64,000 nucleotides of DNA from the NCBI GenBank assembly GCA_946554525.1, contig CAMNSE010000003.1, positions 28,683 through 92,682 on the forward strand. Direction: 5' to 3'. The stretch is from an uncultured Mycoplasma sp. Its GTDB lineage: Bacteria; Bacillota_I; Bacilli_A; RF39; UBA660. This document shows positions 23,452 through 62,841 of this stretch, piece after piece. The translations under genes and the position numbers were made by a program. A model generated the notes under the pieces. It was not told the DNA's origin. It made no database searches and saw only the letters and a list, made by a program, of their open reading frames with translations. Positions within the stretch are counted from its first letter, which is position 1, and every line of letters begins with the position of its first letter.

Positions 23452-25074
23452 TTATGATTCATTATTTTTTATTAAAACAGCATGGATAACTAATCTTTTT
23501 GCTCCGTTATCACTACAAGTTGAAAGAGTTAAGATTTTATCATCTTTATTTATTGGAACATTGAAGTTATGATAACTACGTTTTTTTAACATATCTATGA
23601 AATTTAAAAAATCATTATCGTCTTTAAAATTAACTCTTAAATAATCTGTAGTTTTGGGAACTCTGTAAATTGAGAAAATTCTAAATTGCATGTCATCATA
23701 TAAAGTATTATATGTAATAAGTTGATTTTCAGGATTAGTATACCAACTTTTATTAGCAGCTTTATATAAATTACCAAACATGACTCCTCCATAATAAACA
23801 TTATGTCCATATATAATATTATTTTTGCTTAGGTTCATAGCATCTGCTCGGTAATCCATAAATAGCCAGCCGCTTATACTGTTATTTTTATTAATATCAT
23901 GTGATAAATAATAATCATTATCTACAGTTTGAACAACGGGATACTCAATATTAATATTATTTATTTTGAGTTCCCCAATTACATCTTCATTTACTGATAA
24001 AAGAGCAGCAAGTTTTTCATTAGAAATTAGTTTTATTGAGTCCAGAGGCTTATTATTTTCTTCCGCTTCTTTTATATTCTCTTCTTGTTTCTTTTCAATA
24101 ATTTCAGCTGTATTTGTATCTTCTATTACTTTAGCTAGATTATCTTTTATTTTATTTACATCTTTAAAAGCTATATAATTGGATACTCCTATATATGTAA
24201 CAACAAGTATTACTAAACTAGAAATAATTAAGCCACATACTTTTAAAGTATTAGTTATTGTTTGTTTGAAAATATTTTTATCTAAATAATCTTTTGAGTA
24301 TTCTATGGATAACATTATTTGATATTTCTTTTTGTAATTTTTATTTATTTTTCTTAAATGCTCAGCTATTTTTTCATCTGTTAAGTTTTCATGAATTACA
24401 ATTTTAATATTTCTTTTGTTACATTTTATTAAAATGTTTAATACTTTATCTAGTTCCAAAATATCTAATTTGTTTAAATGCACAATTTTTAAATATTTAT
24501 TTATTTTACAAAAACTTTCTAAGTCTTTTATATCTTCTTGTGATAATGGAAGAATAATTCTAATATTGGTTTTATAATATATATTAGAATAGCGAATCAA
24601 ATTATTAGTTTCCATAAAATTACTAATATATAAAATTTCGCTTCGAGATTCACATGTAATGTTATTTTTGTCTAAAAGTTCAATCATAAATGGTTGAAGA
24701 GAGTAGCAACTAATGCTTTTAATATGTTTAATATTAATAATTTGTTCTATAATATTATAGGTGATAGCTTCATCTTCTTTAAAATAAATGCTTTCTATAC
24801 TAATAGCTTTCTTAAGAATATTTAAAACAATTGGAGCTAAATCCATTTTAGAAATAATGCAATTTTTAACTTGATATTGAATTGATAACTCTTTAATAAA
24901 AGATGATAAGATTTTATTATTTTCTTTAATATATATATCACTAAATATTAGTTCATTATTACTAATTATATTAGTATTAATTAAATCATTATTAATGGTA
25001 CTATTATTAGTTTTATAAGAAAATATAATGTTATTATTTTGAATATTAATTAAAATCTTTTTCACATTAGCCAC
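23452..25074 (-). CDS. srtB: Class B sortase with a long N-terminal cytoplasmic extension
   Basis: C-terminal about 200 aa carry IIYGHN, MFGNL and TLSTC (catalytic Cys), then a single TM (LKVCGLIISSLVILVVTYIGV). The first about 270 aa are an extra Leu/Ile/Asn-rich domain. Confidence 0.8.
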   Translation of the reverse strand: MANVKKILINIQNNNIIFSYKTNNSTINNDLINTNIISNNELIFSDIYIKENNKILSSFIKELSIQYQVKNCIISKMDLAPIVLNILKKAISIESIYFKEDEAITYNIIEQIINIKHIKSISCYSLQPFMIELLDKNNITCESRSEILYISNFMETNNLIRYSNIYYKTNIRIILPLSQEDIKDLESFCKINKYLKIVHLNKLDILELDKVLNILIKCNKRNIKIVIHENLTDEKIAEHLRKINKNYKKKYQIMLSIEYSKDYLDKNIFKQTITNTLKVCGLIISSLVILVVTYIGVSNYIAFKDVNKIKDNLAKVIEDTNTAEIIEKKQEENIKEAEENNKPLDSIKLISNEKLAALLSVNEDVIGELKINNINIEYPVVQTVDNDYYLSHDINKNNSISGWLFMDYRADAMNLSKNNIIYGHNVYYGGVMFGNLYKAANKSWYTNPENQLITYNTLYDDMQFRIFSIYRVPKTTDYLRVNFKDDNDFLNFIDMLKKRSYHNFNVPINKDDKILTLSTCSDNGAKRLVIHAVLIKNNES

Positions 25075-29094: not shown

Positions 29095-29862
29095 ATGAAA
29101 TATATAAAGTGTTGTTTTTTAGCTTTTGCTTTATTTTTAATTAATGTGAACTCTGTTTTTGGAGAATGTAGTACAGAAGAGATGAATAAATTAAATAGCT
29201 TAGCAGTTAATGTAAATGTTGATAAGGAAGAAATGATTGGAGTTTTAGATAAAGGAGAATATAGTCCTCCTGATGGTTTAACCAAAGAAGAAGCCGAAAA
29301 TTATGTTGCTACTTATTCTTTTTTTCGAATTTATATTCGAAATATAACTGAAGATTTATATATTAAAGTATATAATCATGTCACCGAAGAAACAAATACT
29401 TATACTTATCAAGATAGCGAAGATGGAACTATTTATTTTGATCGTAAGTATATTAGAAATCTTGGAGAATACACAATCACAATTTATAGTTCAGATAAGA
29501 CGGGATGTGCGGATATAAAACTAAGGTCGATTCCTGTTACAACACCTTGGTTTAATGAATATAGTACATTAAATTTATGTAGTGGAGCTGAAGAGTTTTA
29601 TTTATGCCATAGATTTTTAACTGTGGAAAATGTTGATTTCAGTAAATTCACTGAATTAGTAACAAAATATAAAAATGGTAAAGTAAATAAAGAAGGAGAA
29701 GAAATAGAAGAGACGCCAGAAAAAAAGAAAGATTCTTGGGAAGAGTTTTATAAGAAATATAAAGTCTTTATTATATCTGGTTTAATAGTTTTAGTAATAG
29801 GTGGGGTAAGTACTGGCATTGTGAAAAAGAAGAATAGGAGTAAAAAGAATGCAAAAGAATAA
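29095..29862 (+). CDS. Module 1 gene A: type-I membrane protein (signal peptide, 4 conserved Cys, C-terminal TM anchor)
   Basis: Signal peptide ...NSVFG/EC and C-terminal TM plus KKKNRSKKNAKE. Paralogue of 34275..35021. Its 3' end overlaps the next gene by 14 nt. Confidence 0.75.
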   Translation: MKYIKCCFLAFALFLINVNSVFGECSTEEMNKLNSLAVNVNVDKEEMIGVLDKGEYSPPDGLTKEEAENYVATYSFFRIYIRNITEDLYIKVYNHVTEETNTYTYQDSEDGTIYFDRKYIRNLGEYTITIYSSDKTGCADIKLRSIPVTTPWFNEYSTLNLCSGAEEFYLCHRFLTVENVDFSKFTELVTKYKNGKVNKEGEEIEETPEKKKDSWEEFYKKYKVFIISGLIVLVIGGVSTGIVKKKNRSKKNAKE

Positions 29863-32800
29863 GAAAGTAGTTTTGTTATGTATCACTTTATTTGTATCTC
29901 TATTTAGCTTTAATAATTTTGTTAGTGCCTCTCAAACAAAAGAAACAAAAGAGAGTGGTGTAATTGTAGCTGATAATGAAAAACTTGAAAAAGCCACTAA
30001 AATTAATCAAACTCATACAGATTATAATCTTCACTATTATGGAATGAATATATCTAAAAATGGCAATATTATAACTTCAGATCAAACATCTAATTATTTA
30101 TATGAGCACCATTATAATACTAATAAAACTAATGAAACAAAAAATATATTTTGCTTAGATGCCATAAAGAAAGGAACACAAGAATTATATGCTATTCGTT
30201 TCTTAATGGATGCTGAAAATCATGATTCAGTTAGTGCATATGATGCTGCTATTATGAGTGTTCTTACCGCTGAGGCTACATATACTCACAAAAGTATTGC
30301 AATTAGAGCTATATCATTTTTATGGAATTATAATAAAACAGAAGCTGGATATAATCTTTCACAAGATGTAAAAGATTTAGTTGAGGCTTATAGTGGTCAG
30401 GTGTTTAAATGGATTAATGAAGATCAAGATATACAAGGCCTTTATTTAGAACTATATAAAAAAATAGATAAAACAAGAGATAAAGAATTGCCAAATGTTA
30501 ATATTTCAAATGGTGATATTTATGATTTTGATGGTAATAAAATAGCAAATAATGGCTATCATTTTGATTATAATAAAAATGTAGATGGAATAAGTGAAAA
30601 TAATACAATTATACCAGCCAGAAATTTATTTGCATGGGCTTTAAGAGATGCCCTAAATTATTTGAATAGTAAAGAAAAAGCAAATGTAAAAGAGGGAGTT
30701 ACTTCTTCAAGTGTTGTGAATGTTGAAAAACAAGGAGAGCAAGATTTAGTGTCAGGGGTTATTACACATAATTTTGTACTTAAAGAATTTACAAACGATG
30801 ATAAAGCTTCTTTTATGATTAGTAATTTAAAATATAAGTATACATATAAAGGAGTAGAGTCTGGTGTTCCTGTTGTTGATAGTATTACTATTAAAAATGG
30901 AAGTAATACTACAAAGTTTACAAAAGAGAATTATAATGGAAGTTTTTTAAATGTTAATTTATTAGATAGCAGTAAATTTAATATTCCAGCACTTGATTAT
31001 TCTAAAGAAATTACAATTAGTGTTGGTGTTAAAATCGCAGGATATAAAGCAGTTGAAGGTGCAACTCCAACTAAAGAGACGCTTAAATGTTCTAATGGAA
31101 CGCTAGAATATCAATTCGATTATACATGGCAAGATAGTTCATTGAAAGCTTTTAATAAGTTTGATAATTATGTAGGAATTGTTTGGTATGGAACTTTAGC
31201 TGGTGGAGAGGCTACAGACACAGGTAACCAACGGTTTATAAGTGTAGAAACAAATGCCAATGCTAGTTCTAGTTCACCTAATTCTAATTCTAACAGTAAT
31301 AGAGCTAAAGGTTCTTATACATTTGATTTAGGATGTGATAGTTGTAATACTTTAATTTCGAAATGTAATGGAAATGATAGTGAGGCATGTTCTATGTTAG
31401 CCGAAAGAAGCGATTGTGGATGTGAAGCTTATCAAACTTTATGTAATAAAGGCGACGATGCTATGTGTACTAAATTAGATGAAGATCCAGCTTGCTTACC
31501 AGCTACATGTGGAACAGAAGTCGTAGGAAACTTTCAATGTTGTGATTTAGAAGATAATATTTTATTAGTAGAAACAAAAAATAAAGAAATAAATATAAAT
31601 GGACCTCAAAACGTAGTTAGTTGTTTTGTAAATCAAGTTGATAGCCGTCGTACATCAGGAACAGATGAAGGCATTATAAATGATGAAGCGGGGAATAGCT
31701 ATGTTATGCTAAATAATCGTTATTGTACTGTATCATGTAAAGAAGATTATGTTTTATCAATGCCAAGCAGTAAAAAAGTAAATGCCAGTGGATACTTTAC
31801 ATTTGATATGTCTATTAAAGGTACAAAATCTTGTTATACTAACACCATAGATAAAAATGAAACTTTTATGGATGATGTAAGAGATGCTGAGGCTGCGGTT
31901 AAAGAGGCTTCTGATGTTTATAATGCAGTTATACTTATTAGAAATGCTGCTAAAAGTAGTGAATTTTCTAAAACAAGTGAAACACATACTGGGAGTACCG
32001 ATTATAGTTACAGTTGCACGAAAACAAGAATAGTAACGGGTACAGATTGCTCTGATAGAAGCGACTGTTATCGCAAATGTAAAAATAGTCCTAATCAAAC
32101 TGAATGCGGAGATGCGTGCGATGAAATAAAATGTAAACCAACAACCACTACCGAAACCTATACTGGTACCTGTGATGATGGAACATGTTCAAATACTCCT
32201 ACATCAGGCACTGGATACTCATTTGCTGCATATGGAGGAACATATTATTATGGTGTTAAAAGTATAAGTGGGCCAAATAATCATGGTAGTAGTTCAACAA
32301 GTAGCTCTTGTACTTGGTCTAAAAATTATTATACTACTCCAGCTTTATCTTATAGTAATACTTTCAATAAAAAAAGTTATAATAGGACTTCTAGCTATAC
32401 ACTTACAAGTGCTGAGTCTTATGATGATATTGTATCTGATGCATATAACGTATTAATTGCAGCTAATGAAAGACTAGAAAATATTATAAATGATTATGAA
32501 AAGTGTAGTACATTTACTAATAAATATGAGTATAAACCAGTTATAAATTACAGCTATTATGTTGATAAGGTAAAAACAATAAAAGGAGACATGGGACTTG
32601 TAGATTCTAATTCTAATAAAAAAGATGGTGAAAATGCAGAAGAATGGTATTGTACAACTTCGCTTACTAATGGATATGGACCTGGTAATTGTCGTGGTAT
32701 AAATAATGAATCAACTAGTATGCCAACACGTACAATTAGAGTATTTAAGTGTTCAATTACTTCTAATGATCCTACTTGTATAAATCAAGATGTAGAAATA

Positions 32801-33748
32801 CCGGCTGCTAAGTATGTCTCTAAAATATCTACAGTAAATGCAAGTTATGAGCCAATAAATGACAGATATAATTATTTACCATCTGGTATTGTTGGAGGAA
32901 AAAATGAATATCCTGGATCTTCAATTTTAGCTGGGAACCGTTTATCAGTAGATTTGAATTCTGGCAAAGAAATAAAACAATATGATATTTCAATTAGCAA
33001 TTTAGGGGAATTTTATGATTCTGATTCTGATTCTAAAAAACTTGGGCGCCTAATAGGAGACGATAATGCTGCTTTAAAAGAAAATGAACTACTAAATATA
33101 AACAATAACAATCAAGCTACTTATCATTGCAGTTACTTAGTTAATATGGGTAATATAAAAGAAGGCGACTTAGAATGTGTATTTGATGGATGCGGTGAAC
33201 CGTGCAAATTTGAGTGTGTAGGGTCTGGATGTGAAGATCATTGTCCTGGAGGAAATTGCGATTTTGATTGTTTAGGTAGTGGATGCATTTATAGTAAAGA
33301 AGATGGTCTTTATGTATACGAAAAAGAAATATCTTTAAATAATTTGTTCCCAGTGGGAACCGATTCTTATAACTGGAGTAGTAGTAATCAAAAAGCTAAA
33401 GATACTGTAGCAGAAATTCAAGAAAAAGCCGAGAATGTATATGCTGAAGATCCAATTTTAAAAGTAACTATTGATGGTAGCGCTGCAGCCAAAATAAAAG
33501 CATATAATAAAGAACACCCAAGTTATTCTGATGGCTCTATGTATTTTAGAGATATAGGTGATTATGAAAAAATTGCTGGATATAGTCAATTTATTGATGA
33601 GCTAATTAAAGGAACATATGGCGTGGATATTGATAGTAATAGTGAAGTTTTAACAAAGAGAAATACTAATAATCCAACTCAAAATAATTATTTTAGCATA
33701 TGGGGAAAGTATAGAGGCCAATCAATGCTTGGGCCTTCATGGAAGTAG
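29849..33748 (+). CDS. Module 1 gene B: 1299-aa secreted cysteine-rich giant protein
   Basis: Sec signal peptide (…FVSA/SQ), uninterrupted 3.9-kb ORF, RBS AGGAG. Aligns along its whole length with 35011..38700. No recognisable wall or membrane anchor at the C-terminus. Confidence 0.8.
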   Translation: MQKNKKVVLLCITLFVSLFSFNNFVSASQTKETKESGVIVADNEKLEKATKINQTHTDYNLHYYGMNISKNGNIITSDQTSNYLYEHHYNTNKTNETKNIFCLDAIKKGTQELYAIRFLMDAENHDSVSAYDAAIMSVLTAEATYTHKSIAIRAISFLWNYNKTEAGYNLSQDVKDLVEAYSGQVFKWINEDQDIQGLYLELYKKIDKTRDKELPNVNISNGDIYDFDGNKIANNGYHFDYNKNVDGISENNTIIPARNLFAWALRDALNYLNSKEKANVKEGVTSSSVVNVEKQGEQDLVSGVITHNFVLKEFTNDDKASFMISNLKYKYTYKGVESGVPVVDSITIKNGSNTTKFTKENYNGSFLNVNLLDSSKFNIPALDYSKEITISVGVKIAGYKAVEGATPTKETLKCSNGTLEYQFDYTWQDSSLKAFNKFDNYVGIVWYGTLAGGEATDTGNQRFISVETNANASSSSPNSNSNSNRAKGSYTFDLGCDSCNTLISKCNGNDSEACSMLAERSDCGCEAYQTLCNKGDDAMCTKLDEDPACLPATCGTEVVGNFQCCDLEDNILLVETKNKEININGPQNVVSCFVNQVDSRRTSGTDEGIINDEAGNSYVMLNNRYCTVSCKEDYVLSMPSSKKVNASGYFTFDMSIKGTKSCYTNTIDKNETFMDDVRDAEAAVKEASDVYNAVILIRNAAKSSEFSKTSETHTGSTDYSYSCTKTRIVTGTDCSDRSDCYRKCKNSPNQTECGDACDEIKCKPTTTTETYTGTCDDGTCSNTPTSGTGYSFAAYGGTYYYGVKSISGPNNHGSSSTSSSCTWSKNYYTTPALSYSNTFNKKSYNRTSSYTLTSAESYDDIVSDAYNVLIAANERLENIINDYEKCSTFTNKYEYKPVINYSYYVDKVKTIKGDMGLVDSNSNKKDGENAEEWYCTTSLTNGYGPGNCRGINNESTSMPTRTIRVFKCSITSNDPTCINQDVEIPAAKYVSKISTVNASYEPINDRYNYLPSGIVGGKNEYPGSSILAGNRLSVDLNSGKEIKQYDISISNLGEFYDSDSDSKKLGRLIGDDNAALKENELLNINNNNQATYHCSYLVNMGNIKEGDLECVFDGCGEPCKFECVGSGCEDHCPGGNCDFDCLGSGCIYSKEDGLYVYEKEISLNNLFPVGTDSYNWSSSNQKAKDTVAEIQEKAENVYAEDPILKVTIDGSAAAKIKAYNKEHPSYSDGSMYFRDIGDYEKIAGYSQFIDELIKGTYGVDIDSNSEVLTKRNTNNPTQNNYFSIWGKYRGQSMLGPSWK

Positions 33749-34274: not shown

Positions 34275-35021
34275 ATGAGGAAAATGAGCACATTTGCTTT
34301 AGCTATTTTGACATTCTTATTTGGGACTAATATTGTTAGCGCTCTTTGTGAAGCATCTGAAATGAATAGACTAAATACTTTAGCAGTTAATGTAAGAAGT
34401 GATTTTGAAGAAATAGAAGAAGTAATGGATCCAGATGAGTATGACTTGCCAGATGGTACAGAGACAGAAGAACTGCCAGAATTAAAAAGATTGTTTTTTA
34501 AAGTAAATATTTACAATGTTACTGATGAGCTATATGTTTTAGTTCATAATAATGTAACTAATGAAACTAAAAAGTTTACTTATCAGGATAGTAAAGATGG
34601 AGTAATAAGTTTTATTTGGGATGACTTATATTCGATTGTAAACTATACAATCACTGTATATAGTTCTGATAAAACAAATTGCGTAGACACAAAATTACAT
34701 ACTTTATATCAAACAACACCAAGATTTAATGAATATAGTAGTTTGGCTGCTTGTGATAATGCTGATGACTTCTATTTATGTCATAAGTATATTACTGTTG
34801 AAACAACAGACTTTAGTAACTTTATAGCCAAAGTTGACGAATACAAAAAGGGCAAAGTTAACGAAAAAGGTGAAGAAATAGTCTCACCTAATAAAAAGAA
34901 TGAAAATTTTATAAGTGAATATAAAAATATAATTATTGCTGTTAGTGCAGCAGTAGTTATAGTTGGGGTTATATCTGTGGTAGTAGTAATAATCAGGAGG
35001 AGTGGTAAAAATGAAAAATAG
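34275..35021 (+). CDS. Module 2 gene A: type-I membrane protein, paralogue of 29095..29862
   Basis: Signal peptide ...NIVSA/LCEASEMNRLN matches ...ECSTEEMNKLN of the paralogue. The four Cys are conserved. C-terminal TM plus RRSGKNEK. Start at ATG 34275 after GAGGTGG. Confidence 0.75.
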   Translation: MRKMSTFALAILTFLFGTNIVSALCEASEMNRLNTLAVNVRSDFEEIEEVMDPDEYDLPDGTETEELPELKRLFFKVNIYNVTDELYVLVHNNVTNETKKFTYQDSKDGVISFIWDDLYSIVNYTITVYSSDKTNCVDTKLHTLYQTTPRFNEYSSLAACDNADDFYLCHKYITVETTDFSNFIAKVDEYKKGKVNEKGEEIVSPNKKNENFISEYKNIIIAVSAAVVIVGVISVVVVIIRRSGKNEK

Positions 35022-38000
35022 TTTAAAAAAAGTAAACTTATTATTAATAGCCTTAATGGTATTATTTAGTGGATTAAAATCAGTTTATGCTACAAGAGAA
35101 GAAAGAATAGGTGCTGATAATCAAAAAGTAATAGCTGATAGTGAGAGTACTAAAGGTGTTACTTATACTACTAAAGCAAAGATATCTAGTGCTAGTAGAA
35201 GTTCATATTATAAATTTGGTCTATCTTGGACTGGGACTGACGGAAAAAGTTATAGTAACAATAACATTTCTTATGCAACGTATTATGATAATTATCGTAT
35301 AAAGAAGACATCATTTTACTTATATTGTTTAGATCCAGCAAACTGGTCTGAAAGTGGACTTTATGCAAAACGCTTTTTATTGTCTCCATCAAATAGTTTA
35401 GGAGTTAATTCTTATGATACAGCTCTTATGTATATCCTAACAAGCAATGAATCTTATGCGGCCAAAAGTATTGCTATAAGATCAATTAGTGCTTTATGGG
35501 GATATGAATATGGCAATGATGATTTAGCAACTGATATAGGAAAAAATTCATACCGTTTATATGCTGCATATTTTGGACAAGCATTAAAATGGCTTGAAAA
35601 AGAAGGAATAAGTTCATCTTATAATAGGCTTTTAAATGCCGGTGTGGGTCTTAAATCTATTGATTCCTTAAAGAGTGGTAGTCTTGAAGTTAATAATGTC
35701 ACTTATAGTTATAAATTATATGGCTTTAGTGATTATAGTGGAGGAAATACTGTATCTAAAGCGGAAGAATTATTTAAGGGTGCTTTATCAAAAGCAGCGG
35801 ATTATGCTGAAGCTAATAAAAATGGCTTTGCAAATGTTGGAGAAAATAAAACTCTTGCTCCAGTTAAAACACCTGAAGTCGTAACAAGCGATACTGAAAT
35901 GATTTCATATAGAAAAACTTATGATTTCACTTTAAATAAGTTTACAAATGATGGTAAAGCATTTTTCTCAATTGATAGTTTAAAATTTGATAAAGGTGCA
36001 GCTGCTGTTGGAGCTAGATTTGAGCCTTATGTTATTGCAGTTTCTGTTAATGATAATGTGATTTATGATAGAGCAAAAAATATTGGAACTCTTAATTATA
36101 AAGATAACATTTTAGCTTATCAATCAGTAAAAGATTTAAATATTGATGTTAGTAAAGATGTTAAGATTTCAGTAACAATTGAAATACTAGCATATTATAA
36201 TGTAAGTGGAAATGAAAATCATATTAGTTGTGCAACACAACCAATGGATTATACACTAGCTTATAGTTATAATGATTCTTCTATCCCTAATTCATACAGC
36301 AATTATCTAGGAATAGTTTGGCAAGGTAAGAAAATTTCTTCAAGTGGGAAACCAGTTATATCTCAAAGATTTATTTCTGTTGAAAAATTAAATGATGAAA
36401 ATAGTAATGATGGAAAAAAGACAGTAGAAATGAAGGATAGTGTTAGTTTAATTGAATGTGGAAGCTGTTCAACATTAGCTAGCCTTTGTGAGAAAACTGG
36501 TAATCGCTTTAGTGCTGAATGTACTAAGCTTAAAGAAGCTAATTGTGGATGTACTTATTTAAATACTTTCTGTAGTCTTGGAGATAATGACGCATGTAAT
36601 AAGTACGAAAAAGAGTGTGCATCATCTTGTGAAACTACCGTTTCTAACGAATTCCAATGCTGTGATGAGGCTAATGATATATTACTAATTTCTCAAGAAA
36701 ATAAAAAAGATATTGAAATTAATGGACCATCAAATACAGTTGCATGTTTTGTTAATAAAATAGATGAAATTAAAAATAACAAGAATGATAACACAGGATA
36801 TACTGGTGTTAGTGTAGAAGATGAAGCACATAATAGCTATACGATGCTATCTAATAAATATTGTGCAGTTTCATGTAAAGAAGATTATGCGATGAATCTT
36901 CCATCTTCTAAACTTGTTAATGCCGGAAGATATTTCACATTTAGAATGGGTATTGAAGGCAAAAAAACATGTTATACAAGTACAATTGATAAAAGCTCAT
37001 ATAATACTGATATAAAAAATGCTCAAATAGAACTTATTAATGCTTATAATGATTATGTTATATATAAAGCAGCTCAAGATAAAGCAAACGCTAATGGTAT
37101 TACTTCATCTACACTTGATTGTGCAAGCGGATGCGGAACTCGTACTGGATATAGTTTATCTATTTCTATTTTAGGATTTGAACCTGTTGTAAATAACGAT
37201 GGTACTGTTTCAAGAACAACTAAACAATTAAATAAAACATTTAGCTCAAATGGAACTACGGGAAGTTCACACTATAGTTGTACCACAGCAGCTAATGGCA
37301 AACAAAGCTGTGAATGGGTATGCGATTCTTCTTGTAAAGACGGTAGTAGTAGTGAGATAAAAACTGAGGTTTCACAAGGATTAGAAAAAGCTAAAACTAG
37401 ACTTGCAAATGCTAAAAAAAGTTATGAAAGTATTATTAGTGATTTTAATTCATGTACAAACTTTACAACTGATATAAATTTTGATCCTGAAGTTACTTAT
37501 GATTATCAAGAATTCTATAATAGTAAAGCTGTTATGGAGGAATATAATAAGAAGACTGGTACTACATATCAAGGAGAAAATTATGATGAAGAATGGTATT
37601 GTGATGGTACTGTAAGTGGGTCAAAATATAATTGTAGTATTAGTCCTTATAAGACTCAAACAGGCCATTTAGTAACTAGAGTTTATACAGTATGTACTGA
37701 GGCAGGTTGTAGTAACGATACTAAATATATTTCAACAGCAAACTATGCTAAGAAAACAGAGACTGTAAGTGCAAGCTATAGACCAACAACACTTTACTAT
37801 AATCGTTATCCAAATGGTACAATTTCTACTAATGAAAGTGATAATAATGATGTGGCGCTTGAAAATAGACTTCCTGTATCACTTAATACAAAACGAGGAA
37901 TTTATGAATATAATATCAATATTACTGATTTAGGAGAGTTCTATAAAGAAGAATCTTTAGGAAGACTTGCTGGATCTTCTAATAGAGCAGTTCTTGCTCA

Positions 38001-38700
38001 AAAGAAATTTAATGATCTTACAAATTATATTAATAACAGTATTAATTATAATTGTTCTTACTTAGTTAATATGGGTAAGATTGATGAAGGTATGTTAAAA
38101 TGTGACTTTGGCTCTTGTAAAGATGGCCTTTGTGACTTTGAATGCGTTGGCCCTGGATGTGGACAATATTGCGATAATGGACATTGCGACTATAATTGTA
38201 TAGGAGCTGGATGTATTTATAATGAAGGCGATGGAACAAGCTTATTTGAAAAACAAGTTTCTTTAAATAATTTATTCCCAAATGGTACTGATTCTTATAA
38301 TTGGAATGAAGAAAAAAATAGTAAAGCTGATCAAACTATCGAAATGATTGAAGGAAAAGCAAATACCATTTATGATGAAAAACCAATTTTAAGTATTACC
38401 ATTACTCCAACAACAGCTAAAGCAATAAAAAAATATAATAAAGATAATAAAAATGTTTATACAAATGATACCTTAACTTGTAAAGATATTAATAAACATG
38501 AAAATATTGCTTGCTATAGTAATGTATTATCACAATTAATTGAAGGAACATTTAATGGTATTGATAAAAACGCAATAAATTATGTTGATGAGGCACGTAA
38601 TCCTGAAAATACAAATAGTGGATATTTCACAACATGGAGTAGTGTTTCAGAAAATAATATGTTAGGACCATCTTGGAAAATAGGAAAGGAGCAAAAATAA
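35011..38700 (+). CDS. Module 2 gene B: about 1229-aa secreted cysteine-rich giant protein
   Basis: Sec signal peptide (…SVYA/TR) and AGGAGG RBS. The start overlaps the end of gene A. Cys clusters are conserved with 29849..33748. Confidence 0.8.
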   Translation: MKNSLKKVNLLLIALMVLFSGLKSVYATREERIGADNQKVIADSESTKGVTYTTKAKISSASRSSYYKFGLSWTGTDGKSYSNNNISYATYYDNYRIKKTSFYLYCLDPANWSESGLYAKRFLLSPSNSLGVNSYDTALMYILTSNESYAAKSIAIRSISALWGYEYGNDDLATDIGKNSYRLYAAYFGQALKWLEKEGISSSYNRLLNAGVGLKSIDSLKSGSLEVNNVTYSYKLYGFSDYSGGNTVSKAEELFKGALSKAADYAEANKNGFANVGENKTLAPVKTPEVVTSDTEMISYRKTYDFTLNKFTNDGKAFFSIDSLKFDKGAAAVGARFEPYVIAVSVNDNVIYDRAKNIGTLNYKDNILAYQSVKDLNIDVSKDVKISVTIEILAYYNVSGNENHISCATQPMDYTLAYSYNDSSIPNSYSNYLGIVWQGKKISSSGKPVISQRFISVEKLNDENSNDGKKTVEMKDSVSLIECGSCSTLASLCEKTGNRFSAECTKLKEANCGCTYLNTFCSLGDNDACNKYEKECASSCETTVSNEFQCCDEANDILLISQENKKDIEINGPSNTVACFVNKIDEIKNNKNDNTGYTGVSVEDEAHNSYTMLSNKYCAVSCKEDYAMNLPSSKLVNAGRYFTFRMGIEGKKTCYTSTIDKSSYNTDIKNAQIELINAYNDYVIYKAAQDKANANGITSSTLDCASGCGTRTGYSLSISILGFEPVVNNDGTVSRTTKQLNKTFSSNGTTGSSHYSCTTAANGKQSCEWVCDSSCKDGSSSEIKTEVSQGLEKAKTRLANAKKSYESIISDFNSCTNFTTDINFDPEVTYDYQEFYNSKAVMEEYNKKTGTTYQGENYDEEWYCDGTVSGSKYNCSISPYKTQTGHLVTRVYTVCTEAGCSNDTKYISTANYAKKTETVSASYRPTTLYYNRYPNGTISTNESDNNDVALENRLPVSLNTKRGIYEYNINITDLGEFYKEESLGRLAGSSNRAVLAQKKFNDLTNYINNSINYNCSYLVNMGKIDEGMLKCDFGSCKDGLCDFECVGPGCGQYCDNGHCDYNCIGAGCIYNEGDGTSLFEKQVSLNNLFPNGTDSYNWNEEKNSKADQTIEMIEGKANTIYDEKPILSITITPTTAKAIKKYNKDNKNVYTNDTLTCKDINKHENIACYSNVLSQLIEGTFNGIDKNAINYVDEARNPENTNSGYFTTWSSVSENNMLGPSWKIGKEQK

Positions 38701-60093: not shown

Positions 60094-60122
60094 TTGACTT
60101 CGGATAGGGGGTATGCTATTAT
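60094..60122 (+). promoter_or_regulatory. Putative sigma-A promoter of the 625-aa surface protein gene
   Basis: TTGACT, 17 nt spacer, TGC-TATTAT (extended -10). Confidence 0.5.
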
Positions 60123-60146
60123 AAATATATAAGATAGGAGACTAGT

Positions 60147-62024
60147 ATGAAGAAGTTATTTAAAGTGTTTTTAAGCATTGTACTAAGCGTAGTTGCAATT
60201 AGTAATGCTGATGCAAAAACAATAAGTACTGATGATCTTGCAAAAGAGTTGGAATTGAAGGTATCTCAAGTAAATGAAAAAAGTACTTGCTATAATTCAA
60301 AGGTTGTAAAAAATAGCAATAATATTACTATTCAATATGAAGTTAAAGATAAAAATAATTCACTCTGTCTTAATCCTGATGGATGGAATTTTAAGTTAGA
60401 AAATAATGATAATGTTTTATCAATGAAAAGCTCTTATGATAGTAAAAAGCAAAATGTTACATTAAATTATCAAGAATTAATTAAACAAGATATTTTATGG
60501 TTTGATGTAATTCTTAATATTTTAGATTATAAAGAAACATTTAGTAGTTTAGATCAAAATAAGAGTACCATAGATAGCTTATTATCATATAGTAAACGAA
60601 GTTATTATATGATAACTGATAGCGTTTTAAAAGATACTAAAATAAAAGAAGCCGTTGAAACATATCAGGAAGCATTAAATATGTATGAAAAAGCTAAAGG
60701 ATATTTAGATGGCGCACTAAAGAATTTTAAAGCTGAAGATATTAGCGGTAAGAATGAATATACATATACTTCTACAAGTAGCACTCAAGTATGTACAGAT
60801 GGATTAATGGCTGGAGTTTGTAGTACAGGATTTGATTATGTAAATCCGACTTGTCATGAAAATATAACTAAATGTAAAAGAGAATGTACAACAGATGAGT
60901 GTAGAAATAATTGTAATGATTTGTATCCTGATAAAGATTGTGTAGCAACCAAAAACACATATGAATTATGTACTATTCCATGTTCATCTGATAATAAGCC
61001 GGTTTGTAAAGATGGATTAATGGCCGGAGTTTGTAGTAGCATTGAATTTGTTAATCCAACTTGTCACGAACAAATAACAGCATGTAAAAGAGAATGTACA
61101 ACAGATGAATGTAGAAATGGCTGTAATGATAAATATCCTGATAAAGATTGTGTTAAAACAGAGACAGTTTATAAACCATGCATAAAATCTTGTTCTACTG
61201 ATAATGTTCAAGTATGTACAGATGGATTAATGGTGGGAGTTTGTAGTAGCATTGAATTCGTTAATCCAACTTGTCATGAACAAATAACAGCATGTAAAAG
61301 AGAATGTACAACAGATGAATGTAGAAATAGCTGTAATGATAAATATCCTGATAAAGATTGTGTTAAAACAGAAACAGTTTATAAACCATGCATAAAATCT
61401 TGTACATCAAGTAGTAGTAATACTGGTAAATGTACAAACACAGTTTTAACAGGTAAAAAGTATTCTTTCCAACCTACCGACTATAAACGTTATGATTTAA
61501 TAAAAGGAACTGTTAGTGTTCAAAAAGATGATAGATCATTTTACGGAATAAGTAGTATTACTGGTCCATTAAATTATGGTAATAGTGGTACAAGTAATGC
61601 ATGTACATGGACAGCAAATTATACTTTTGATTTTAAACTATCTTATACTAAGAGTTTTAATCAAACAAGTTTTGGAAATGAGTCTAAAATTTATAAGTTA
61701 AAATCTTCAGATGATTTTAAAACGATAGTAAATGACGCACTTGTAGTATATCAAAAAGCTGAAGATAATTTAAATAAAAGTTTAAATCAAAATCCTTTCT
61801 ATTATTTAGAAGAATTTAGTTATAAGCTTTCTAATAACAGTTCAAATGGTAGTACCGATAATGGAAATAATAGTGCTAATAATGAAGATAAAAAAGATCC
61901 AAATAATAAAGATGATATTGACAATCCTCAAACAGGAATTATTATTCCGATAGGAATAATAATTATTGGTTTAGGAACATTATTTGTGATTAGGTATAAA
62001 AAGAATAAAATCCATAAAATTTAA
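60147..62024 (+). CDS. Sortase-anchored cysteine-rich repeat surface protein (NPQTG), partial paralogue of the giant proteins
   Basis: Signal peptide (…SNADA/KT) and three 70-71-aa repeats with 10 Cys each. The block YGISSITGPLNYGNSGTSNACTW matches YGVKSISGPNNHGSSSTSSSCTW of 29849..33748. C-terminus is NPQTG, then a TM, then RYKKNK. Confidence 0.8.
   Translation: MKKLFKVFLSIVLSVVAISNADAKTISTDDLAKELELKVSQVNEKSTCYNSKVVKNSNNITIQYEVKDKNNSLCLNPDGWNFKLENNDNVLSMKSSYDSKKQNVTLNYQELIKQDILWFDVILNILDYKETFSSLDQNKSTIDSLLSYSKRSYYMITDSVLKDTKIKEAVETYQEALNMYEKAKGYLDGALKNFKAEDISGKNEYTYTSTSSTQVCTDGLMAGVCSTGFDYVNPTCHENITKCKRECTTDECRNNCNDLYPDKDCVATKNTYELCTIPCSSDNKPVCKDGLMAGVCSSIEFVNPTCHEQITACKRECTTDECRNGCNDKYPDKDCVKTETVYKPCIKSCSTDNVQVCTDGLMVGVCSSIEFVNPTCHEQITACKRECTTDECRNSCNDKYPDKDCVKTETVYKPCIKSCTSSSSNTGKCTNTVLTGKKYSFQPTDYKRYDLIKGTVSVQKDDRSFYGISSITGPLNYGNSGTSNACTWTANYTFDFKLSYTKSFNQTSFGNESKIYKLKSSDDFKTIVNDALVVYQKAEDNLNKSLNQNPFYYLEEFSYKLSNNSSNGSTDNGNNSANNEDKKDPNNKDDIDNPQTGIIIPIGIIIIGLGTLFVIRYKKNKIHKI
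60789..61415 (+). repeat. Three in-frame tandem repeats (213/210/about 205 nt); copies 2 and 3 nearly identical at nucleotide level
   Basis: Copy 2 (61002..61211) and copy 3 (61212..) differ at only a handful of positions by eye. Copy 1 (60789..61001) is more diverged. Confidence 0.85.
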
Positions 62025-62052
62025 ACGCAAAATTTTGCGTTTTTATTTTTTT
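62023..62052 (+). terminator. Rho-independent terminator
   Basis: Palindrome AAACGCAAAATTTTGCGTTT followed by a T-run. Confidence 0.8.
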
Positions 62053-62091
62053 TGAAAGGTATTTATGGTATAGTATGTTTAGGTGGTTTTT

Positions 62092-62841
62092 ATGGAAAAA
62101 TTAAAATATACTATATGGGTGAATAAAGAAAGATATACAAATGTAACTGGTGGAATAAGACTTTTTAGAGAAAATCCAAATCATTATTTAGAAATATCTT
62201 TTGCAGGGAATTTAGATTTATATTTTACTTTATTTGATCTTGAAGATGGTACAACATTTTTAATTGGTAAAGATGACTATGAAGTTTATCAGTTATTTGA
62301 CGAGTTGTATAGTAAAGTTTTAAATGGTAGATGTTATGATGAAGTAGAGGATGATTTGAAATCTATAAGAATGTTGGAATTAGAAGAATCAGATATAGAC
62401 TATCATGAGAAGTTTAAAGAAAAAATGGAAAGAAGAGAAGAGCGTAGGCAAATGAATTTGTCTCAAGCAAAGATGTCTGGGCTAGTAGATAATGGTTTGA
62501 TTATATGGCGAAGCGATGATTATCCTAAAGATATGGCACCATATTTTGTAATTCGTAAGCTACAAAATGCCTATGAATTAGAATTTGGAGTACCACATGT
62601 TTGTAGAGATTTAAGTTTTGAGGAAAAGATGGCAATTAATGATTATAAACATAAAGTTTGGGTTAGTGTAAGGCTTCGTAATAGTGGCTCAAGGTATGAA
62701 CCATTTAATCTATGTTTTATGGATTTATATAATAAACTTTGTAATCTTAATCCAGAATATCATCAAATTCATATTGAAGAATGGTTAATTGATGAAGAAT
62801 TAAAAAAAGGAGAGTCTTTAGAAAGAATATTAAGAAGATAA
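62092..62841 (+). CDS. Hypothetical protein
   Basis: ORF with AGGTGG RBS before ATG 62092. No signal peptide or recognisable motif. Confidence 0.55.
   Translation: MEKLKYTIWVNKERYTNVTGGIRLFRENPNHYLEISFAGNLDLYFTLFDLEDGTTFLIGKDDYEVYQLFDELYSKVLNGRCYDEVEDDLKSIRMLELEESDIDYHEKFKEKMERREERRQMNLSQAKMSGLVDNGLIIWRSDDYPKDMAPYFVIRKLQNAYELEFGVPHVCRDLSFEEKMAINDYKHKVWVSVRLRNSGSRYEPFNLCFMDLYNKLCNLNPEYHQIHIEEWLIDEELKKGESLERILRR

Follow-up and report, generated by a model that had tools for sequence, protein, structure and literature searches.

The window analysed here is a 64,000-nucleotide (nt) stretch of the forward strand of contig CAMNSE010000003.1 (positions 28,683 to 92,682), from an uncultured Mycoplasma sp. 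that GTDB assigns to RF39 (UBA660). A single open reading frame (ORF) at window positions 60147..62024 on the forward strand encodes a 625-amino-acid (aa) wall-anchored protein, referred to below as the anchored protein. This protein is, in our judgement, probably exported through the Sec pathway, attached to the cell surface by a sortase, and equipped with a hairpin and tip module that has been exchanged with giant B, one of two giant secreted proteins encoded elsewhere in the window; the module would likely serve as an exposed binding head. The gene looks like a self-contained transcription unit, with its own predicted promoter, ribosome-binding site and terminator. Its features, with positions in the window and strand, are:

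60094..60122 (+), promoter-like site: TTGACT, 17-nt spacer, TGc-TATTAT (extended -10)
60136..60140 (+), ribosome-binding site AGGAG, 6 nt 5' of the ATG, read from the sequence
60147..60215 (+), signal peptide, aa 1-23, ending ...SNADA and followed by KT; no lipobox Cys
60216..60626 (+), N-domain, aa 24-160: helix, four strands, helix; Cys48, Asp115 and Trp118 invariant in its family
60627..60788 (+), predicted ascending hairpin helix, aa 164-192, and beta-hairpin linker, aa 195-210 (modelled with pLDDT 76-82)
60789..61001 (+), Cys-rich repeat 1, aa 215-285: 71 aa, 10 Cys; the fastest-changing part
61002..61211 (+), Cys-rich repeat 2, aa 286-355: 70 aa, 10 Cys
61212..61421 (+), Cys-rich repeat 3, aa 356-425: 70 aa, 10 Cys
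61422..61706 (+), beta-rich cassette, aa 426-520: 2 Cys; common to giant B and the ortholog P0006
61707..61826 (+), predicted descending hairpin helix, aa 523-547, and linker; in alignments it falls on the helix at the start of the giants' conserved C-terminal half
61827..61922 (+), Asn/Ser/Asp-rich low-complexity stalk, aa 561-592, which presumably crosses the wall
61923..62024 (+), cell-wall sorting signal: NPQTG (Asp at P5), 18 hydrophobic residues, RYKKNKIHKI tail, stop
62023..62042 (+), terminator-like hairpin of 8 bp, then a T-run, directly after the stop codon

The promoter-like site is a consensus match only, with 10/12 hexamer positions and the TG present (60094-60122), and a G5 run (60107-60111) lies within its 17-nt spacer. 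The signal peptide was predicted by inspection of the sequence, which has a Lys-rich start, a hydrophobic core and an Ala-x-Ala site at aa 21-23; it is conserved across all members of the family, described below, that shares the N-domain and an NPxTG signal. With 34 Cys (5.4%), the anchored protein ranks second in Cys content among the 849 ORFs of the genome that are at least 150 aa long.

The two giants, and the part of giant B that resembles the anchored protein, lie at:

29849..33748, giant B, 1299 aa, beside a Tad-like ATPase (T2SSE-type); signal peptide, no sorting signal
35002..38700, giant B', the second giant secreted protein of the window; no sorting signal
31880..32497 (+), module homologous to the anchored protein, inside giant B (aa 678-883): helix, Cys-run, cassette, helix

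A first-pass annotation, made by a model from the sequence, had noted that a cassette in the anchored protein is homologous to the middle of giant B, and comparison of the two bears this out. In composition-adjusted BLASTP, aa 427-547 of the anchored protein match aa 778-881 of giant B at 36% identity (E 3e-10); with giant B as the query, the match runs from aa 383-547 to giant B 744-881, with 33% identity over 165 aa, and reaches into repeat 3 (E 7e-14). The Smith-Waterman score of the pair is 186, compared with 45 +/- 6 for shuffled sequences, and because of this large difference (z 23.8) the similarity of the cassette is not compositional. The one ortholog returned by a word-indexed protein search, and the only ortholog found, is P0006, a protein of 599 aa from a public run assembly, whose middle is a hairpin module with a single, non-repeated Cys-run. 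P0006 aligns with giant B over 244 aa (E 2e-20), spanning helix, Cys-run, cassette and helix; through it the ascending-helix region of the anchored protein aligns with giant B 678-720. Alignment of the three cassettes gives 34 invariant columns. Since the cassette of the anchored protein is only 55% identical to that of P0006 and 39% identical to that of giant B, the exchange of the module would be old.

The first-pass annotation had also pointed to a Cys-rich run that precedes the cassette in giant B. This run is present at the same position and has a Cys framework in common with the repeats, but a direct similarity between repeat and run is not significant: the repeat unit alone, compared with the Cys-run of giant B or of P0006, gives z 1.1-1.9. 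The suggested correspondence of repeat and run thus relies on place within the module and on the shared Cys framework. One could ask whether the whole resemblance to the giant is purely compositional, both proteins being rich in Cys, Ser, Thr and Asn, and whether the repeats are a known domain. The repeat-to-run comparison, taken by itself, is what such an explanation would predict; however, the composition-adjusted E values (3e-10 to 2e-20), the shuffle z of 23.8 and the 34 columns that are invariant across three sequences speak against it, as does the lack of a Pfam, NCBIfam, PHROG or PDB match to the repeats, and we give it practically no weight.

Giants B and B' are collinear paralogs with 33-40% identity except in their centres, and the module sits exactly there. 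The central insert shared with the anchored protein is that of giant B only. The first-pass annotation had seen a different, shorter Cys-rich variant at this position in giant B'. No version of the cassette is detectable there: giant B' and the cassette of the anchored protein show no BLASTP similarity, an hhalign probability of 0.3% and a shuffle z of 0.3. The anchored protein shows no collinear similarity over the conserved N-terminal (about aa 1-700) and C-terminal (about aa 870-1299) blocks of the giants. It was also proposed to be a third member of the giants' family. Outside the 165-244-aa module, however, nothing aligns, and the protein belongs to a family of its own, defined by the N-domain and the NPxTG signal; because its similarity to the giants is limited to the module and its N-domain has other relatives, the anchored protein is not a third giant. 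It has no paralog in the same genome besides giant B.

The site that the module occupies in giant B varies between genomes. Of 300 other genomes sampled from the same taxonomic family, 20 contain homologs of the giants, and the genes from nine of these were examined together with giant B, its 92% strain variant and giant B'. The two conserved blocks that flank the centre were located in 6 of the 9 other-genome giants and in the three giants of the window's lineage. Between these blocks, the centre ranges from 41 to 211 aa and contains 0-10 Cys (window 31855-32485 and 36991-37434; loci L107, L109, L111-L114). The short centres (41 aa) consist of the two helices alone, and the long ones carry an insert between the helices, so that at least three unrelated types of insert occur at one structural site. 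Given this variation in length between conserved blocks, the earlier description of a "variable, exchangeable core" is a fair one for the giants; in effect, the core is a helical hairpin whose tip can be replaced. Giants from two other genomes have a centre of the B' type as well (E 3e-11 and 4e-5). The B-type module is in none of the nine other-genome giant sets, and the cassette profile matches nothing in a further 400 genomes of the family; as far as these searches reach, the module is limited to the anchored protein, its 93% variant, P0006, giant B and the 92% variant of giant B. A module that is homologous to the giant B insert, at a site that is variable between genomes, argues for an exchange between two otherwise unrelated scaffolds.

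This same narrow distribution, in a wall-anchored family (the anchored protein, its 93% variant and P0006) on the one hand and in giant B and its 92% variant on the other, would also be expected if the anchored protein were a docking partner that holds the unanchored giant B at the surface through contact of like module with like module, and the giants do end without a sorting signal. Yet giant B' lacks a matching partner, each of the giants is already preceded by a small protein whose C-terminal membrane helix could retain it, and the two copies of the module are only 36% identical. We therefore consider docking improbable.

A predicted structure suggests how the module is arranged within the anchored protein. 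The parts modelled with confidence by AlphaFold2 (AF2), as judged by the predicted local distance difference test (pLDDT), are the N-domain (pLDDT 76-92, about aa 30-130), the helix 164-192, parts of the cassette and the helix 523-547. Structural matches that span residues 157..551 fall on alpha-hairpins (ROP variants, MexA/AcrA hairpins, F-BAR arms and PrgA; Z 5.5-7.0); since these are two-helix hairpins, the model pairs helices 164-192 and 523-547 in an antiparallel fashion, which would place the repeats and the cassette at the hairpin tip. The hairpin matches themselves are generic and carry no functional meaning. Searches with the whole model returned generic hairpins and small alpha/beta sandwiches only, and the best match to the N-domain (Z 5.0) was uninformative.

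The N-domain defines the family to which the anchored protein belongs. An exhaustive phmmer search of 1.84 billion representative proteins recovered eight proteins in all, none of which matches the repeats. P0006 and P0008-P0013 have in common with the anchored protein the signal peptide, the N-domain of about 140 aa, the low-complexity stalk and an invariant N-P-x-T-G; library-wide E values range from 7e-116 to 4e-4, and the pairwise value with P0008 is 6e-17. The middles differ across the family. P0008 has a divergent cassette (z 4.8), and most members carry a small domain with a 'PNT.YY' motif. With a profile of the family, full-length members were detected in 2 of 401 genomes (that of the window and one other from its genus), and a third genome matches the N-domain only. 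No relatives were found in a JGI metagenome scan (query P0001) or a GTDB genome scan (query P0006). Searches of Pfam, NCBIfam and PHROGs with the anchored protein and both giants gave nothing over threshold, a PDB sequence search with the anchored protein gave noise alone, on the membrane tail, and the ESM Atlas gave no usable match to the whole protein or to the N-domain. The family thus appears to be small and patchily distributed in uncultured small-genome gut Bacilli, with a variable middle. The module is present in two or three members of this small family and in one lineage of giants; transfer into giant B is therefore the simpler direction and seems the more likely one.

The three tandem repeats of 70-71 aa with 10 Cys each, as first described, are confirmed by an exact Cys count and by Tandem Repeats Finder, which reports a 210-nt period and 2.9 copies (60786-61403). 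At the DNA level, repeat 1 is 77% identical to repeat 2 or 3. Repeats 2 and 3 had been called almost identical, which overstates the case: they agree at 191/210 positions (91%) over the full unit and at 184/192 (96%) when only the first 192 nt are counted; the longest stretch without a mismatch is 51 nt, and the two copies are separated by 4 synonymous and 9 non-synonymous codon differences. The repeats have no match above threshold in Pfam, NCBIfam, PHROGs or PDB sequences, the best being DUF723 with 18.4 bits (cut-off 20.9). On these searches, the 70-aa 10-Cys repeat would be new and undescribed. When a single unit (repeat 2) is modelled alone, AF2 predicts a beta-hairpin, two helices and a final strand (pLDDT 71), with the two helices over a C-X3-C-X4-C-X3-C core (pLDDT 78-87). 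This model has no clear fold match among solved structures (Foldseek best E 1.4; VIA best Z 3.2).

The history of the repeats can be read from a strain variant. The 90% cluster of the anchored protein contains one other sequence, P0014, which is also 625 aa long, is 93% identical and likewise has three repeats. The differences between the two proteins are unevenly distributed: 17/71 residues (24%) in repeat 1, 4/70 (6%) in repeat 2 and 6/70 (9%) in repeat 3, compared with 10/137 (7%) in the N-domain, 2/95 (2%) in the cassette and 0/72 in the second helix and stalk. Between the strains, repeats 2 and 3 pair by position (66/70 and 64/70 identical residues), while repeats 2 and 3 within the window's protein agree at 61/70. 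This position-for-position pairing means that the triplication predates the split of the strains, and the earlier suggestion of a recent duplication is correspondingly weak. Two columns of the repeat have changed in all three repeats, as against 0.08 expected (P about 0.002), and each directly precedes a Cys of the CX3C motifs. Column 32 has changed from Glu to Ala in all three copies, which fits exchange between copies or parallel selection; column 41 is different in every copy in both strains. Of the proposed ongoing homogenisation, there is one hint, the shared Glu-to-Ala change, and nothing further.

The repeats might instead matter mainly as DNA, as a 210-nt recombination substrate that varies length and antigenicity between cells. 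Stretches identical between repeats 2 and 3 do reach 51 nt, with agreement at 96% of positions over 192 nt, the ortholog P0006 has a single non-repeated Cys-run, and the common Glu-to-Ala change suggests some exchange between copies. Nevertheless, no variation in copy number is seen between the two available sequences, the anchored protein and P0014, which both have three copies matched by position, and 4 synonymous differences already separate repeats 2 and 3; we regard a repeat-number switch as quite improbable.

The C-terminal end of the anchored protein has all the parts of the sorting signal that the first-pass annotation had recognised (NPQTG, 18 hydrophobic residues, and the Lys/Arg tail RYKKNKIHKI), and a candidate enzyme is encoded in the window:

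23452..25074 (-), class-B-type sortase, 540 aa, candidate anchoring enzyme, 35 kb upstream; catalytic domain aa 310-529

This sortase matches the Pfam family Sortase with 51.6 bits, which is over the cut-off, and motifs of the catalytic type (YGHN, LSTC and KRL, with His, Cys and Arg) are visible. It also has an Ile/Asn/Lys-rich N-terminal extension of about 280 aa, presumably cytoplasmic, before its membrane helix, which is unusual for sortases. The motifs on which class B sortases act are NPXTG/NPQTN, and Asp at P5 is favoured by the B. anthracis enzyme (PMC11987632); the signal of the anchored protein has Asp at this position. A genome-wide scan for sorting-signal tails found three ORFs, with NPQTG (the anchored protein), NPKTG and VPPTG, and the VPPTG ORF adjoins a small sortase on another contig. 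The NPKTG protein (668 aa; contig C4:36523-38526, forward strand) is the genome's only other NPxTG protein and is unrelated to the anchored protein. Within it, two tandem segments of about 115 aa, each starting DKPSISIKKSSNEKEVQ, are nearly identical, which makes it another case of a recent internal duplication in a surface protein. In another genome (G192), an otherwise unrelated 579-aa surface protein (L005:232-1971, forward strand) resembles the anchored protein only in the last part of the stalk and in the signal (DDPIDNPQTG); as this sequence occurs with an unrelated passenger, the acidic residues before NPQTG are conserved across passengers in this bacterial family.

The window contains the peptidoglycan and division genes murG, murB and ftsQ, and the relatives of the genome are metagenome-assembled genomes of uncultured gut Bacilli. 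In a published survey, the RF39 order is predicted to keep peptidoglycan and, unlike RFN20 and ML615J-28, srtA/B sortases (PMC10868615).

The gene of the anchored protein faces an orphan ATPase of the PilB/GspE type. This ATPase is also present in two species of the same genus that lack the gene of the anchored protein: in one, the ATPase is directly beside rumA, and in the other it is beside a 39% homolog of the 252-aa protein that neighbours the anchored protein in the window (62083-62841, forward strand). This 252-aa protein has no family match, and its homolog adjoins the ATPase in the absence of the gene of the anchored protein. A functional link to the ATPase was considered and rejected on this distribution; because the ATPase is kept without it, the gene of the anchored protein is accessory cargo in a variable spot, and adjacency is no evidence of shared function. 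In the second species, the homolog of the 252-aa protein is followed by VirB4-like conjugation genes and by a different Cys-repeat NPQTG protein of 416 aa. The latter (genome G138, L105:2479-3729, reverse strand) is an exported protein with about eight tandem Cys-containing repeats of about 30 aa and ends in VDNPQTG and a membrane tail; the genes beside it, for a VirB4-like protein (594 aa) and a 196-aa conjugation-type protein, have counterparts of 79-91% identity on contig C1 of the genome that contains the window.

The arrangement in the second species raises the question of whether the anchored protein is related to conjugation, as a surface protein for mating-pair aggregation or surface exclusion like enterococcal PrgA/PrgB. 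Besides the VirB4-like genes and the other Cys-repeat NPQTG protein at the same chromosomal spot, the layout of a hairpin with a head is in keeping with such a role, since PrgA is among the many hairpins matched by the model (Z 5.9). In the window, however, no conjugation gene adjoins the gene of the anchored protein; the match to PrgA is of a kind that long helices give in general, and neither PrgA nor PrgB resembles the anchored protein in sequence. A conjugative function is thus doubtful, and we hold it to be improbable.

Taken together, these analyses favour an anchored surface protein with an exchanged module, which might work as follows. After Sec export, the class-B-type sortase would link the anchored protein covalently to peptidoglycan through NPQTG. 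The middle of the protein would form an antiparallel two-helix hairpin whose tip bears the three Cys repeats and the beta-rich cassette of about 100 aa. The repeats, stabilised by disulfides or by metal, could provide a rigid extension, derived by triplication of an ancestral single Cys-run, and the outermost parts (repeat 1 and the two repeat columns) would be those that diversify fastest. The most likely role of this tip is that of an exposed binding head (adhesin), as suggested by the architecture, the surface location and the pattern of variation.

Several observations weigh against this reading. The best NCBIfam model for the 540-aa sortase, TIGR03064 (srtB), scores 151.6 bits, 2 bits under its equivalog cut-off of 153.75. 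The AF2 model of the whole protein has a pLDDT of only 53, with the repeats below 40, and the fold searches yielded no informative match for any part of the protein. The similarity of the repeat unit to the Cys-run of giant B or of P0006 is, as noted, not significant. In the 93.6%-complete genome, DsbA, DsbB, VKOR, Thioredoxin_4 and DsbD/CcdA were not found, which leaves disulfide formation in a protein with 34 exported Cys without an evident enzyme; these residues could be handled by spontaneous oxidation, metal binding or a novel enzyme. The direction of transfer was judged from a sample made up of the giants of 9 other genomes, a set of 400 genomes and a single ortholog. Finally, the reading comes from sequence analysis and structural models. 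(Other Cys-rich exported proteins of this genome are a 185-aa signal-peptide protein on contig C11, with 7% Cys, and giant B, with 44 Cys.)

A broader form of the exchange can also be imagined, in which surface recognition is a plug-in function. The hairpin would be a universal socket on unrelated scaffolds, namely the short anchored protein and the giants tied to a Tad-like machine, and Cys-rich heads would be moved between sockets and expanded by tandem duplication; alternatively, the anchored copy would capture the giant through the shared head. We consider this unlikely. If it were true, one and the same binding specificity would be displayed both nearer to the cell and farther from it.

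Uncultured Bacilli with small genomes are frequent in the guts of animals and humans, and we know of no account of how they attach to anything. The anchored protein is small and tractable, and it displays the same head as a giant that is hard to study; the head could be expressed alone in a search for its ligand. The gene also documents what appears to be a new 10-Cys repeat, a probable module exchange at a hairpin tip, and, in a genome in which no known disulfide-forming enzyme was detected, exported proteins of very high Cys content. Modular, fast-evolving, sortase-anchored adhesins are well known, and the anchored protein is of this already-known kind of surface protein and alters no general principle.

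Comparison with known systems places these features in context. Within the window, the anchored protein and giant B are alike in being Cys-rich and exported and in sharing the 165-244-aa module of helix, Cys-run, cassette and helix; the anchored protein differs from the giants in lacking their collinear blocks, in having a sorting signal and in having a different N-domain. The single repeat recalls the alpha-hairpinins and twin-CX3C proteins (luffin P1, the Ara h 1 leader peptide and the small Tim proteins), which have the same C-X3-C ... C-X3-C spacing that is found in all three repeats, where a helix-turn-helix is predicted. Luffin P1 aligns to the repeat model over 41/43 residues with a root-mean-square deviation of 3.4 A, at a Z of 2.9 that is at noise level. 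In contrast to these proteins, with which there is no sequence homology, the repeats have six extra Cys each in flanking strands and are bacterial, tandem and wall-anchored; the likeness seen in the model is a resemblance only.

The arrangement of the whole protein is like that of enterococcal PrgA and other surface proteins that carry a distal head on a coiled-coil stalk, in that an antiparallel hairpin with a globular insert at its tip is predicted by the model (PrgA Z 5.9) in a wall-anchored protein. The differences are that the helix match to PrgA is generic, that there is no sequence similarity, and that the anchored protein has no conjugation genes nearby. In its means of attachment, the anchored protein is similar to the substrates of class B sortases (S. 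aureus IsdC, with NPQTN; B. anthracis IsdC, with NPKTG; and the C. difficile proteins with (S/P)PxTG), which likewise have a signal peptide, a C-terminal motif, a hydrophobic stretch and a basic tail; the substrate signal of B. anthracis IsdC also has Asp at P5. Unlike these substrates, the anchored protein has no NEAT/haem-uptake domain and no adjoining isd genes, and its passenger domains match nothing known, and the sortase of the window differs from class B systems in its N-terminal extension of about 280 aa.

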